DNA from: Pseudomonadota bacterium
GTDB lineage: Bacteria; Myxococcota_A; Polyangia; Haliangiales; Haliangiaceae
NCBI GenBank assembly: GCA_023386455.1
Contig: JAEWJO010000803.1
Coordinates: 1,069 to 65,068, forward strand
DNA length: 64,000 nucleotides
Direction: 5' to 3'
The translations under genes were made by a program, and so were the position numbers. Shown here piece by piece: positions 3,971 through 59,320 of this stretch (within the stretch, counting starts at the first letter, position 1; every line of letters starts with the position of its first letter). The notes below the pieces were generated by a model. It was not told the DNA's origin. It saw only the letters and a program-made list of their open reading frames with translations, and did not search any database.

Positions 3971-3987
3971 CGCGCAACTCCTGCGCG
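3971..3987. promoter_or_regulatory. 17-bp palindrome CGCGCA-N5-TGCGCG (candidate activator site) between ccoNO and the mini-ORF
   Basis: cgcgca actcc tgcgcg; the two arms are perfect reverse complements. Confidence 0.5.
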
Positions 3988-4045
3988 CATCGAGGTGTGC
4001 GCTGCAACCGCTGCGGGAGTTTGCCTCGGATCGTGCGATCTCGCG

Positions 4046-4061
4046 TGGCACGGCCGGTGCT
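4046..4061 (+). promoter_or_regulatory. Sigma-54-type element upstream of the 34-aa ORF
   Basis: TGGCAC-ggccg-GTGCT. GC to ATG is 15 nt. Confidence 0.55.
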
Positions 4062-4074
4062 CTCACGCGGCGTC

Positions 4075-4179
4075 ATGAAGAAGCCGAAAGACCCGTGGGC
4101 CATCCCGCTCGAGGTGATCCTGTGGACGACCTACAGCGTCGGCCTGATCATGGTGATGGTCGTGGTGCTGATGAACTAG
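4075..4179 (+). CDS. 34-aa hydrophobic mini-protein, unknown function
   Basis: MKKPKDPWAIPLEVILWTTYSVGLIMVMVVVLMN. Nearly every codon ends in G/C, unlike the flanking non-coding DNA. One TM helix. A sigma-54-like element lies 15 nt upstream. Confidence 0.4.
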   Translation: MKKPKDPWAIPLEVILWTTYSVGLIMVMVVVLMN

Positions 4180-6107
4180 GTGCCGAGCACTTCGTTCAGC
4201 GCGTCGAGCAGCTCGTCGATCTTCACGGGCTTCGTCAGGTAGCGATAGAACCCGGCCTCGCGCGCACGACTCGTATCGCGCGCCATCGCGGCCGCGCTGA
4301 GCGCGATCACCGGGATCCGCGCGGTCTCGGGCCAGCTCTTCAGCAGCTTGACCGCATCGAACCCGCTCATGCCGGGCAGGTTGATGTCCATGATCACGGC
4401 GGCGGGCTGCTGCGCGCGGACGATCTCGAGACCGATCTCCGCGGTCGGTGCGGTCAGCAGCTCGACGGCAGGCAGGTCCGACATGAGCTCGCGCATGAAC
4501 GCGATGTTCGACGGGTTGTCCTCGACGTAGACGATCCGGTGCGCGGAGGGAGCCCCCGCGAGCGCCGAGCCCTCGGCGATGTGTGGCTTCGCGGCCGCGG
4601 CGTCGTCCGACTTCGCGACGTGGACCGGAACATCGACCCAGAACTGCGAGCCTTTGCCTTCCTCGCTCGCGAACCCGACCGAGCCCTGCATCAGCTCGGC
4701 GAGCCGCTTGCTGATCGACAGGCCGATGCCCGTGCCCTCGATCGGTCCGGTCTCCTGGCCCGCGCGCTGGAACGGCTCGAAGATCCTGTCGCGCTTGTCG
4801 GTCGGGATTCCCATCCCGTCGTCGACGACGGTGAGCCGCACGTGCGAGTGCACGCGCGCGCTCCTGAACACGACGTGGCCGCCGGGGCGGTTGTACTTGA
4901 TCGCGTTCGACCCGTAGTTCATCAGGATCTGCGCGAGTCGCGTCCGATCCGCGATGACCTCGGGGACGCCGGCGATCTCCGAGACGAGATCGACGCCCGC
5001 GCGTTGCGCCATTGGCTCGAGCGTCGTCAGGACCTCGGCGACCATCTCGTCGACCCGCACGGGCTCGTTCGAGATCGCGACGCGTCCGGCCTCGATGCGG
5101 GCGAGGTCGAGCACCTCGTCGATGAGGCGCAGGAGGTGCTCGCCGCCGGACAGCACGTGGCCGAGCCGGTCGAGCTGGCGGTCGCTGAGCGGTTGCTTGC
5201 GATCGCGCTGGAGCAGCTGCGCGAACCCGAGGATCGCGTTCAGCGGCGTGCGCAGCTCGTGGCTCATCGAGGCGAGGAACTCGCTCTTCGCGGCGCTGGC
5301 AGCCTCCGCCTGCTGGCGCGCGCGGCTGAGCTCCTCCGCGCGCAGGATGTCGTCGGTGATGTCGACGATCAGCGATACCGTGCCATGCTCCGCCGTCGCG
5401 CGATCGGTGACGCGAAGCATCCGGCCGGTGCGCGTGCGCAGCTCGAGCGAGCCGGCGGGTTCGCGGTGATAGTCGACCCAGCGCTGCCGGAGGTCGGCGG
5501 CGGGCTCGGAGCCCGGATCGATCAGCGGCAGGATCGCGTCGGCAAGCTCGTCGAACCGGCGGCCGACGACCGCGCCCGCGACGGACGCACCGACGAGCTG
5601 GCGGAACGAGCTGTTGACGAGGACCACCCGGTCCTCCTCGTCGTAGAGCGAGAACGCGTCCTGGATACTGTCGACCGAGGACAGGAGATAGGCGTTCGCG
5701 CGGCGGGCCTCGTCCTCGATGCGCTTGCGATCGCTGACGTCGCGGATCGCGGCCGAGAACAGCGTCCCCTGATCGACCTGGATCGGCGAGAGGCTGATCT
5801 CGACGGGGAACTCGGTGCCGTCCTTGCGCCGGCCCGACAGCTCGAGGCCGGTGCCCATCGGTCGCGACCGCGGTGCGCCGGTGTAGCCGCGGACGTGCGC
5901 GGGGTGGCGGCCGCGCAGCCGCTCGGGGATCAGGATCTCGATCGGCTTGCCGAGCAGGTCCGCGCGCGCGTAGCCGAACATCCGCTCGGTCTGCGCGTTG
6001 ACGAGCATGATCGCGCCTTCGCGATCGCAGACGATGATGCCATCGGGCGCGGACTCGACGAGCTCGCGAAAGCGCAGCTCGGCGTCGGGGGACGTTTCAC
6101 GCAGCAT
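4176..6107 (-). CDS. Hybrid sensor histidine kinase (PAS-PAS-HisKA-HATPase-receiver)
   Basis: ORF track 643 aa. H-box SHELRTPLNAILGF, G-boxes, and a C-terminal receiver (RIVYVEDNPSNI...DINLPGMSG). Confidence 0.9.
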   Translation of the reverse strand: MLRETSPDAELRFRELVESAPDGIIVCDREGAIMLVNAQTERMFGYARADLLGKPIEILIPERLRGRHPAHVRGYTGAPRSRPMGTGLELSGRRKDGTEFPVEISLSPIQVDQGTLFSAAIRDVSDRKRIEDEARRANAYLLSSVDSIQDAFSLYDEEDRVVLVNSSFRQLVGASVAGAVVGRRFDELADAILPLIDPGSEPAADLRQRWVDYHREPAGSLELRTRTGRMLRVTDRATAEHGTVSLIVDITDDILRAEELSRARQQAEAASAAKSEFLASMSHELRTPLNAILGFAQLLQRDRKQPLSDRQLDRLGHVLSGGEHLLRLIDEVLDLARIEAGRVAISNEPVRVDEMVAEVLTTLEPMAQRAGVDLVSEIAGVPEVIADRTRLAQILMNYGSNAIKYNRPGGHVVFRSARVHSHVRLTVVDDGMGIPTDKRDRIFEPFQRAGQETGPIEGTGIGLSISKRLAELMQGSVGFASEEGKGSQFWVDVPVHVAKSDDAAAAKPHIAEGSALAGAPSAHRIVYVEDNPSNIAFMRELMSDLPAVELLTAPTAEIGLEIVRAQQPAAVIMDINLPGMSGFDAVKLLKSWPETARIPVIALSAAAMARDTSRAREAGFYRYLTKPVKIDELLDALNEVLGT

Positions 6108-58405: not shown

Positions 58406-59196
58406 CGAAACACTCCATCGCGTGCCCGGAGCGCGCCGGCGATGAGCGCCTCGAGCGCCTCGCGCACCCTGGCGGCGGCACGCGCGACGAGCTCCGGATC
58501 GGCGGCATCCTCGGCGGTGTGTCCGCGATGGAGCTCGATCGGCGCGCCGTAGACGATCCGGACGTGCGCCGGCAGCGGCAGCGGCGACGCGGGAATCGGG
58601 AGGTACGGCGCCCCGAACATGCGAAGCGGCAGCTTCGCGAGCAGCGGCCAGCTCTCCTCGGCGCCGATGATCGCGGCGGGCACGACCGGGGCGGCGAACC
58701 GGATCGCGTGCTCGGCAAAGCCGACGCGCCAGTCCTGCAGCCGGTAGCGATCGCGATACGGCTTCGCCGGCCCGGTGACGCCCTCCGGGAAGATCACCAG
58801 CAACTCGTCGCGCAGCAGCAGGCGGCGCACGTTCGCGCGCGTGCCGCTGATCGCACCCATGCGCGCCAGGAACGCGCTGACGAGCGGGAGTCGGGGCACG
58901 AAGTGGTCGGCGACGGGCCGCGGGATCCGAGGCGGATCGGATCGCCGCACGAGATCGAGGCAGAGCAGCGCGCCGTCGACGGGCAAGAAGCCGCCGTGGT
59001 TCGCGACCACGATCGTCGGACCGCGCGCGGGCAGGTGCTCGATGCCCGACGACTCGACCCGGAAGTATCGCTCGTAGAGCGGCGCGACGAGGTCGACGAC
59101 CGCCGCGAGGCTGCGAGGGTCGAGGCCGAACACGTCATAGCCGCGTCCCTCGTCGTAGAACGGAGCGGCATTGCCGAGTCGTGCGAGCGAGTCCAT
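58402..59196 (-). CDS. Lysophospholipid / 1-acyl-glycerol-3-phosphate acyltransferase family protein
   Basis: VANHGGFLPVDG (HX4D acyltransferase motif) and FPEGV motif. ATGA overlap with the SDR gene. Confidence 0.85.
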   Translation of the reverse strand: MDSLARLGNAAPFYDEGRGYDVFGLDPRSLAAVVDLVAPLYERYFRVESSGIEHLPARGPTIVVANHGGFLPVDGALLCLDLVRRSDPPRIPRPVADHFVPRLPLVSAFLARMGAISGTRANVRRLLLRDELLVIFPEGVTGPAKPYRDRYRLQDWRVGFAEHAIRFAAPVVPAAIIGAEESWPLLAKLPLRMFGAPYLPIPASPLPLPAHVRIVYGAPIELHRGHTAEDAADPELVARAAARVREALEALIAGALRARDGVFR

Positions 59197-59212
59197 TTCC
59201 GCTCGGCACGTA

Positions 59213-59227
59213 GCAAGACGCGGGCCC
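59213..59227 (-). promoter_or_regulatory. Sigma-54-type element upstream of the acyltransferase/SDR operon
   Basis: Minus strand GGGCCC-gcgtc-TTGC. GC to ATG is 17 nt. Confidence 0.4.
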
Positions 59228-59299
59228 CTGGGCGCGGGCCGAGGCAGCTCGTCGCGACGCCATGCGCGTCACGGGTGCAGCGTACGGGCCAGCACGCAG

Positions 59300-59320
59300 G
59301 ATGCGCAGGGCTTGCGCATC
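59300..59320. promoter_or_regulatory. 21-bp perfect palindrome GATGCGCA-N5-TGCGCATC (core TGCGCA-N5-TGCGCA)
   Basis: gatgcgca gggct tgcgcatc. Lies between the divergent acyltransferase and USP promoters. Confidence 0.5.

Follow-up and report, generated by a model that had tools for sequence, protein, structure and literature searches.

The 64,000-nucleotide window analyzed here (GenBank assembly GCA_023386455.1, contig JAEWJO010000803.1, positions 1,069 to 65,068 of the forward strand; all coordinates below are those of the window) comes from an uncultured myxobacterium and is a respiratory and nitrogen-oxide gene island. Its promoter regions carry a recurrent palindromic dyad, YGCGCA-N5-TGCGCR. 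These dyads are very probably the enhancer (upstream activating) sites of an NmpR-like sigma-54 activator encoded at 7430-8839, and they would define a low-oxygen regulon. The sites precede about ten promoter regions (Table 1); the nos cluster is a candidate only.

GCGCA-N5-TGCGC is the binding site of NmpR, an NtrC-like response regulator from Myxococcus xanthus, as established by electrophoretic mobility shift assays and lacZ reporters (McAllister et al. 2025, PMC11841059). The core GCA-N5-TGC is required for the site, five of seven NmpR-bound promoters have two sites (S1 and S2) 14-15 nt apart, and transcription requires the proximal site, the sigma-54 element and NmpR (PMC11841059). The core of the window dyad is letter for letter the same as this consensus, with the same gap between paired sites, and it likewise occurs at sigma-54 promoters and mostly in intergenic DNA (PMC6211767, PMC11841059). 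A 15-bp site with a gap of 14-15 nt gives the 29-30 bp period observed in the window. The M. xanthus regulon includes the CBS-nmpR operon, nmpUTS, USP, a P-type ATPase with cbb3 oxidase, hemN-hemerythrin and pilR (PMC11841059); the predicted targets in the window include CBS, USP, cbb3 oxidase and the regulator's own operon. In a preliminary description of this DNA, it was proposed that one dimeric enhancer-binding protein co-controls these promoters, and the identity of the site, the pair spacing and the overlap of the regulons all favor that proposal.

The 17-mer YGCGCA-N5-TGCGCR occurs without mismatch seven times in the window, with 0.53 copies expected (maximum 4; none of 100 dinucleotide-preserving shuffles reaches seven), and 22 times with one mismatch, with 8.6 expected. 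For the 15-bp core, GCGCA-N5-TGCGC, there are 11 perfect matches and an expectation of 0.96, a count again reached by none of the 100 shuffles. Non-coding DNA makes up 4.9% of the window and contains six of the seven perfect 17-mers (binomial P = 9.5e-8) and six of the 11 perfect 15-mers (P = 5e-6). Dyads are therefore approximately 23 times as dense in the non-coding DNA of the window as in its genes, the opposite of the even distribution that the preliminary description had named as counting against a shared operator. Five perfect copies described previously, at 3971-3987, 12149-12165, 13026-13042, 55484-55500 and 59302-59318, are all present, and the arms of the last extend to a 21-bp palindrome (GATGCGCA-N5-TGCGCATC), as proposed; an intergenic copy at 54769-54785 and a coding copy at 9372-9388 had been missed. 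The half-matches at 10594-10610 and 7328-7344 and the one-mismatch relatives at 12120-12136 and 46606-46622 also hold up, but a third proposed relative, 55455-55471, has two mismatches to the 17-mer and one to the 15-bp core. Beyond these, sites of the same architecture are found at 59331-59347, 7357-7373, 7246-7262, 13079-13095, 45239-45255, 46576-46592 and, as a pair, at 35535-35551 and 35565-35581. The core GCA-N5-TGC is intact in further sites with one or two mismatches.

Matches inside genes are judged to be of a different kind. The perfect copy at 9372-9388 (forward strand; core 9373-9387) corresponds to codons for LAHELRNPL, the H-box of a kinase, and is considered to be the product of chance or codon usage rather than a site; the coding 15-mers at 12702, 20045, 40311 and 52786 are judged likewise. 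A one-mismatch match at 29550-29566 lies within a small receiver-like open reading frame (ORF) and was dropped as a site. A search of the window with Rfam gives no match, and the dyads are therefore not part of a known RNA element.

The sites are also regularly arranged. Six dyad pairs have starts 29-30 bp apart (7329/7358, 12121/12150, 35536/35566, 46577/46607, 55456/55485 and 59303/59332), all of them intergenic; first-order Markov simulations average 1.4 such pairs per window and never exceed 5. In four regions only one site is strong, and its partner is either weak or missing; such a region may have a degenerate partner in the expected register (4002, 10625) or, in the case of nirK, a second site 53 bp away. 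Distances from the dyad center to the GG of the -24 element cluster at 27-28, 36-40, 57 and 66-71 bp in the window as well as in six orthologous loci and in L001, a more distant locus, and site centers in the window lie 20-122 bp from the GG, in agreement with the 20-130 nt described previously. A scan for GG-N10-GC elements against the sigma-54 consensus TGGCACG-N4-TTGCW gives 48 matches, of which 20 are located in non-coding DNA (5-6% of the window), often as divergent pairs flanking dyads. Except in the nos region, the sites are flanked by elements that match the consensus at 9 or more of its 12 positions, 28 or 38 bp from the proximal site and 57 or 68 bp from the distal one. By sequence, the window thus has the features of an NmpR-type enhancer: dyads with an intact core, some of them perfect, six pairs with a 14-15 nt gap and, downstream and close to a start codon, a correctly oriented sigma-54 promoter.

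The promoters are also placed at a constant distance from their genes. An ATG follows the C of the -12 GC by 14-17 nt at 15 of the 20 intergenic sigma-54-like promoters, compared with 5 of the 28 matches within genes (those conforming in the dyad regions are marked in Table 1). If transcription starts at the usual distance, leaders would be 1-3 nt long and the sigma-54 transcripts essentially leaderless. The CBS gene is an exception to this pattern, with a GGAGG and a leader of approximately 10 nt. The same ATG spacing is found by eye at a ytfE promoter (approximately 17615-17630, forward strand), on the NorR side. Combined with alignment of the divergent promoter cassettes, the promoter-to-ATG rule improves several start codons over longest-ORF or G+C-based calls. 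In four divergent gene pairs, the start codons are 139, 149, 149 and 161 bp apart, spacings which are combinations of a 28- or 38-bp arm on each side of a 29-30 bp pair. Between the proximal dyad and a GGTAYG -24 element, which is unusual, the cassettes at 12150-12212 and 55485-55548 have the same 14 spacer bases (GAACGACCCGCGGG), and GGTACG is also used by the nirK promoter; this likeness could reflect a promoter subclass or a duplicated cassette.

The NtrC-like protein encoded at 7430-8839 had been put forward as the candidate binder, and its domain layout, its protoglobin kinase partner and the dyads at its own promoter all point to it. It has the REC-AAA+-HTH_8 architecture of the NmpR group, with D55, V88 and K105 at the positions of NmpR D54, V87 and K104, and its gene, like that of NmpR, has sites at its own operon and is linked to a protoglobin kinase gene, which it overlaps by 4 bp. 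Among the four enhancer-binding proteins encoded in the window, it is the only one with conserved dyads at its own promoter. The protein falls below the NCBIfam equivalog cut-offs for AtoC (522 vs 714), ZraR (477.6 vs 760) and NtrC (455.6 vs 558.6 and 380 vs 620). There are more than 100 database relatives at 78-100% identity, and the named sources are Kofleriaceae or Myxococcota metagenome bins. The recognition helix, SVRTIQYR(M/L)HQY (SVRTIQYRMHQY), is kept in orthologues.

Conservation extends to the DNA in front of the regulator gene. Eight loci around orthologues of 81-83% identity, which represent six distinct places (L082/L083 and L085/L086 are each copies of one), all have a protoglobin kinase gene after the regulator gene. 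The REC-kinase and PAS-kinase neighbors found in the window are present in L081 and L082/L083 and are missing from L084, L085/L086, L087 and L088; in half of the orthologous loci, the regulator-kinase pair stands alone. In six loci, one per place, dyads and a TGGCAC-N5-YSGCTA element are found in the 140 bp before the regulator gene, and when these and the window promoter are aligned, the dyads and the -24/-12 element are the conserved blocks in otherwise diverged sequence. In L001, where the regulator is 58% identical, two dyads 30 bp apart occur before the regulator gene, 40 and 70 bp from the -24/-12 element; that locus encodes a globin kinase (globin domain 60% identical to that of AfGcHK), a REC-REC-kinase and an opposite-strand regulator in an Anaeromyxobacter-type gene order. 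Dyads again precede USP, CBS and ADH genes and an orthologue of the 268-aa membrane protein in the orthologue loci. The membrane protein is behind a dyad in L087 and also in the ADH operon of L088, where the ADH orthologue (71% identical) has a one-mismatch 17-mer upstream, and the USP orthologue is in an operon behind a dyad in L082.

Other searches were less productive. A scan of a genome collection with the globin kinase returned no close relative of the window among the matches listed, where generic kinase patterns dominate; the useful ones among them were L001 and a few full-length planctomycete globin kinases. An exact look-up of the window regulator gave no match, although the protein database contains one that is 100% identical. 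The Myxococcaceae loci L025, L041, L043 and L046 were set aside, as their kinase-regulator pair is another one (44-48% identity) without a globin match. When the AfGcHK globin sequence, taken from the PDB alignment, was used to look for an Nmp locus of Anaeromyxobacter or M. xanthus, only short or partial proteins and one frameshifted locus, L089, were returned. On this 2.7-Mb, Anaeromyxobacter-like long-read contig, genes for USP, CBS, a globin kinase, a receiver and a kinase and a divergent regulator gene are found at L089:10001-14475, all frameshifted, with DksA, ADH, hemerythrin and NorB genes nearby, a neighborhood like the regulon predicted for the window.

[quoted passage not shown] The pairing of the 7430 regulator with a globin kinase, as described previously, is correct at the level of the genes, but it cannot simply be read as the published wiring, because M. 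xanthus NmpU acts on NmpR via NmpS. The globin domain of the window kinase (8836-9999) matches that of AfGcHK, a homologue of NmpU (PDB 5ohe; E = 1e-29; 42% identity), and the residues aligned with AfGcHK Tyr45 and His99, which we take to be the distal tyrosine and the proximal heme histidine, are conserved. Compared with the two L001 kinases (L001:2902-4188 and L001:4137-5921), the window kinase has a DHp/CA core closer to that of the NmpS-like one (45% identity, 179 bits) than to that of the NmpU-like one (28%, 87 bits). The helix after the phospho-histidine, ELRNPLNAAKLQLELLERR in the window kinase, is nearly the same in the NmpS-like kinase (EIRNPLNAASLQLAVLERR), as against ELRNPLGVIESSLYILRGR in the NmpU-like kinase. 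This likeness suggests that the globin kinase may itself be the cognate kinase of the regulator. Its nearest core relatives in a library of 1.8 billion proteins (51-57% identical) are globin kinases too. A fusion of a globin domain to an NmpS-type core, if real, would therefore be old and widespread, which tempers the idea of a recent fusion; by this comparison, the window kinase type is an established subfamily and not a local accident.

It may be that in Kofleriaceae the four-protein Nmp relay has collapsed to a two-component pair, in which a heme-globin sensor on an NmpS-type core phosphorylates NmpR, a tentative reading held with somewhat less than even confidence, for which the kinase-core comparison uses one reference locus, L001. 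The 4-bp overlap of the regulator and kinase genes, their standing alone in half of the orthologous loci and the lack of FNR-type boxes in the cco, nirK and nos promoter regions fit it as well. If it is true, nirK, perhaps nosZ, and the cbb3 oxidase would be under oxygen control by sigma-54 and an enhancer-binding protein, replacing the FNR/Dnr/NnrR control of Proteobacteria, and the output would pass through some ten or more compact, apparently leaderless promoter regions, including four bidirectional cassettes (start codons 139-161 bp apart).

Several observations weigh against the assignment of the dyads to an NmpR-like system. Binding, activation and the phosphorylating kinase are deduced from sequence, the direction of the oxygen response only from the target genes and the M. 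xanthus model, and the likeness to MXAN_4240 is one of domain layout, site, three residues and the link through L001. No double-receiver NmpT protein is encoded in the window, where the relay of separate NmpU, NmpT and NmpS proteins is not found; the core of the REC-kinase at 6097-7197 is only 26-29% identical to the L001 kinases, and the globin domain of the kinase next to the regulator is only 42% identical to that of AfGcHK. Several of the second sites are weak, with two or three mismatches, and the five perfect 15-mers in coding DNA, where approximately one is expected, indicate that codon usage inflates the background somewhat. In the nos region, there is no canonical GG-N10-GC promoter in register with the dyad pair, which makes nos a less certain target; a sigma-54-like element at approximately 35589-35604 was dropped as an in-register promoter, as its -24 is AG rather than GG and it is 18 bp from the dyad center. 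Finally, the 7430 protein and another enhancer-binding protein in the window, the sensor-less one encoded at 20502-21467, have recognition helices with similar first halves (SVRTIQ and SVRTLQ, respectively).

For that last reason, the 20502 protein is retained as a minor rival, one of three regulators in the window (with NorR, 15978-17528, and the GAF regulator ending at 35529) that could bind the dyads in place of the 7430 protein. With four enhancer-binding proteins encoded in a single window, such an assignment has to be weighed, particularly as the GAF regulator gene ends 6 bp before the 35536/35566 pair, but it is unlikely. The dyads are kept before 7430 orthologues in loci that lack such neighbors, and the motif is the published site of a REC-type regulator. 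The 15978 protein passes the NorR cut-off (675 vs 476) and has different inverted repeats by its gene, the recognition helices of the NorR and GAF proteins (DRSNLHHLAKRL and DRANLHRMAKRL) are unrelated to that of 7430, and the intergenic DNA by 20502 contains no GCGCA dyad except one overlapping a -24/-12 element. Equally, a palindrome with an 11-bp half-site period would suit many dimeric helix-turn-helix proteins, and some sites are 20-28 bp from the -24 element, near enough for occlusion; they could in principle be operators of a repressor or Crp/Fnr-like dimer encoded outside the window that modulates the sigma-54 promoters. This is very improbable, given that both sequence and spacing exactly match a proven site for an enhancer-binding protein, that paired sites in fixed phase to the -24 element are typical of activator assembly and that the cco, nirK and nos promoter regions have no FNR/Dnr-type box with up to two mismatches.

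The remaining alternative, that the dyads are a by-product of base composition (69% G+C, rich in GCGC) or of duplicated cassettes and have no regulatory meaning, is already effectively refuted. It could appeal to the five perfect coding 15-mers, to the absence of any excess among two-mismatch matches (187 in the window, against a simulated mean of 213) and to the extra spacer identity shared by the 12150-12212 and 55485-55548 cassettes, but it does not account for a count that none of the shuffles reaches, for the 23-fold contrast with coding DNA, for the fixed site spacing and promoter distances, or for the retention of dyads across seven genomes as their flanks diverge.

If the dyads are the enhancers of the 7430 regulator, its dimers would bind GCGCA-N5-TGCGC via the C-terminal Fis-type helix-turn-helix, and two dyads 29-30 bp apart (a 14-15 nt gap) would nucleate the active AAA+ oligomer upon phosphorylation of the receiver. 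This oligomer would then remodel sigma-54 RNA polymerase at a -24/-12 promoter, with 28 or 38 bp separating the GG from the nearer dyad. Since the sites are palindromic and located midway between promoters, one enhancer could drive a divergent pair of promoters. The signal is probably oxygen, which would be sensed by heme in the co-transcribed protoglobin kinase, and the output would be a low-oxygen program of cbb3 oxidase, nirK, possibly nos, CBS, HPF, the DksA-like protein, USP, flavodoxin and ADH. Induction under hypoxia is suggested by the target genes and by analogy with the M. xanthus model. The presence of the regulator/kinase operon in its own regulon would amount to positive autoregulation. 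The nos genes may have two sigma-54 activators, because the GAF regulator gene ends so close to the dyad pair.

Table 1. Promoter regions with dyads and principal genes of the window. Elements marked ATG are followed by a start codon 14-17 nt after the C of the -12 GC; distances run from dyad center to the GG of the -24 element.
Feature	Dyads or gene positions	Sigma-54 elements	Strand	Remarks
Regulator own promoter	7247-7261, 7329-7343, 7358-7372 (last two 29 bp apart)	TGGCACGATCGTCGCT 7402-7417 (+, ATG)	+	ATG 14 nt after -12 C
ccoNO / 34-aa mini-ORF cassette	3972-3986 (perfect), 4002-4016 (weak partner, 3 mismatches)	3928-3943 (-, ATG), 4046-4061 (+, ATG)		Perfect dyad 37 bp from (-) GG and 68 bp from (+) GG; weak partner about 38 bp from (+) GG by arithmetic on coordinates; start codons 161 bp apart
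CBS / HPF cassette	10595-10609 (1 mismatch), 10625-10639 (half-site partner)	10550-10565 (-), 10669-10684 (+, ATG)		38 and 68 bp on both sides
dksA-like / 268-aa membrane protein cassette	12121-12135 (1 mismatch), 12150-12164 (perfect), 29 bp apart	12075-12090 (-, ATG), 12184-12199 (+, ATG)		39/68 bp to (-) promoter, 57/28 bp to (+) promoter
nirK promoter	13027-13041 (perfect), 13080-13094 (2 mismatches, core intact)	GGGTACGGGGGTTGCT 13125-13140 (+, ATG)	+	92 and 39 bp; ATG 13154
Candidate nos cytochrome c / nosZ pair	35536-35550, 35566-35580 (1 mismatch each, 30 bp apart)		+	
Single dyad	45240-45254 (1 mismatch)	Sigma-54-like, 45194-45209 (-), 45274-45289 (+)		Between the two elements, 39 and 28 bp; gene starts uncertain
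Rhodanese / zinc-ADH cassette	46577-46591, 46607-46621 (30 bp apart)	46532-46547 (-, ATG), 46641-46656 (+, ATG)		
Small membrane-protein gene promoter	54770-54784 (perfect)	CGGCATGCGCCTTGCT 54735-54750 (-, ATG)	-	Dyad 28 bp upstream of element; start re-set to 54722
DUF4389 / flavodoxin cassette	55456-55470 (1 mismatch), 55485-55499 (perfect), 29 bp apart	55421-55436 (-, ATG), 55519-55534 (+, ATG)		Fully symmetric, 28 and 57 bp on each side; start codons 139 bp apart
Acyltransferase / tandem-USP region	59303-59317 (perfect, 21-bp palindrome), 59332-59346 (1 mismatch), 29 bp apart	59212-59227 (-, ATG), 59431-59446 (+, ATG)		
cbb3 oxidase genes (ccoNO fusion, ccoQ-like, ccoP, ccoG-like)	2-3913		-	
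PAS-PAS-HisKA-HATPase-REC hybrid kinase	4176-6107		-	Pfam; divergent from regulator gene
REC-HisKA-HATPase kinase, NmpS-like architecture	6097-7197		-	Pfam; divergent from regulator gene
REC-AAA+-HTH_8 regulator (NmpR-like; proposed dyad binder)	7430-8839		+	Pfam
Protoglobin-coupled histidine kinase	8836-9999		+	Pfam: Protoglobin, HisKA, HATPase_c
CBS, HPF, DksA-like, membrane protein	10003-13018			
nirK with cytochrome c domain, NirV-like protein, SCO1	13154-15974		+	
NorR (GAF-AAA+-HTH)	15978-17528		-	NCBIfam; adjoins ytfE
Sensor-less AAA+-HTH enhancer-binding protein	20502-21467		-	
Hydrogenase-4/Mrp-like membrane complex	21684-28860		+	
Second GAF enhancer-binding protein (GAF-AAA+-HTH_8)	about 34000-35529		+	
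nos cluster	35637-41985		+	
Rhodanese, ADH, molybdopterin oxidoreductase, DUF4389, flavodoxin, acyltransferase, USP	46115-60337			
Re-set start codons	10696 (ATG; HPF), 12062 (DksA-like), 13154 (nirK), 46519 (rhodanese), 54722 (small membrane protein), 55548 (flavodoxin), 59196 (acyltransferase)			

The gene map was derived from third-position G+C content and annotated with Pfam and NCBIfam, and a few start codons were corrected; window G+C is 69%, and the non-coding fraction given above is that after these corrections. The four sigma-54 enhancer-binding proteins are those encoded at 7430, 15978 and 20502 and the GAF protein whose gene ends at 35529; the last was missed by the G+C-based map, which called an overlapping minus-strand ORF there instead. 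The hydrogenase-4/Mrp-like complex (21684-28860, forward strand) is divergent from the sensor-less regulator (20502-21467, reverse strand) and has a -24/-12 element of its own (TGGCGCACTGCTTGCA, 21685-21700), which overlaps a one-mismatch match to the NmpR core; this overlap is probably coincidental. Divergent from ccoNO, a 34-codon ORF (MKKPKDPWAIPLEVILWTTYSVGLIMVMVVVLMN, 4075-4179, forward strand) is located 15 nt behind the best sigma-54 promoter in the window (TGGCACGGCCGGTGCT). Its product has one predicted membrane helix and no Pfam match, and may be a small cbb3-associated or assembly peptide.

Some differences from other systems of this kind are evident. Enteric NtrC (e.g. at glnAp2) is a phosphorylated REC-AAA+-HTH activator of sigma-54 promoters with paired TGCACC-N5-GGTGCA sites. 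The comparison with NtrC in the preliminary description applies to the 6-N5-6 dyad geometry only: the half-site differs, and the protein scores below the NtrC, AtoC and ZraR cut-offs. Paired sites and a REC-AAA+-HTH protein at sigma-54 promoters are further common features. The window targets are also respiratory and stress genes rather than nitrogen assimilation genes, and the sites are much nearer to the promoter (approximately -52 to -92, taking the GG as -24/-25). Low-oxygen control of cbb3, nirK and nos genes is in Proteobacteria exerted by FixLJ-FixK, FNR/Anr and Dnr/NnrR, with Crp/Fnr-type activators at sigma-70 promoters that have TTGAT-N4-ATCAA boxes. The output and the heme-based sensor are similar in the window, but -24/-12 promoters with an enhancer-binding protein are found, and no FNR/Dnr box (TTGAY-N4-RTCAA, up to two mismatches) is found in 3914-4074 (cco), 13019-13153 (nirK) or 35530-35636 (nos). 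NorR, which activates sigma-54 promoters of genes for nitrogen-oxide stress and has a representative next to ytfE in the window, differs from the 7430 protein in its GAF sensor, its repeats and its recognition helix. In the intergenic DNA between NorR and ytfE (17529-17644), there are inverted repeats (arms 17531-17547 and 17568-17584) unlike the NmpR dyad, as well as GTTGT-N7-ACAAC elements identified by eye, which resemble GT-N7-AC NorR boxes.

The NmpR site and regulon have been defined in one species, an obligate aerobe, and the authors ask about targets in relatives with other lifestyles (PMC11841059). The window host is a Kofleriaceae-like uncultured myxobacterium, and its system differs from M. 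xanthus NmpRSTU (PMC6211767, PMC11841059) in several respects. The regulator and globin kinase genes form an overlapping pair, NmpT is missing from the window, and the globin kinase combines an NmpS-like DHp/CA core with a divergent globin domain. The predicted regulon adds nirK, possibly nos, HPF, the DksA-like protein, flavodoxin, DUF4389, ADH and rhodanese, and many of the targets are compact divergent promoter pairs of 139-161 bp.

At the level of sequence, the site, the pair spacing and the own-promoter sites are conserved in a second, deep-branching myxobacterial lineage, and the core targets CBS, USP and cbb3 are kept. The predicted regulon is widened to nitrite reductase, possibly nitrous-oxide reductase, a ribosome hibernation factor and redox proteins, and the sensor input may be wired otherwise than in the model organism. 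For uncultured Kofleriaceae, the analysis provides better gene starts and promoter assignments, along with exact probes and promoter mutations for testing. Current understanding would be extended by these findings, not overturned, as the recent NmpR finding is carried to a new lineage.

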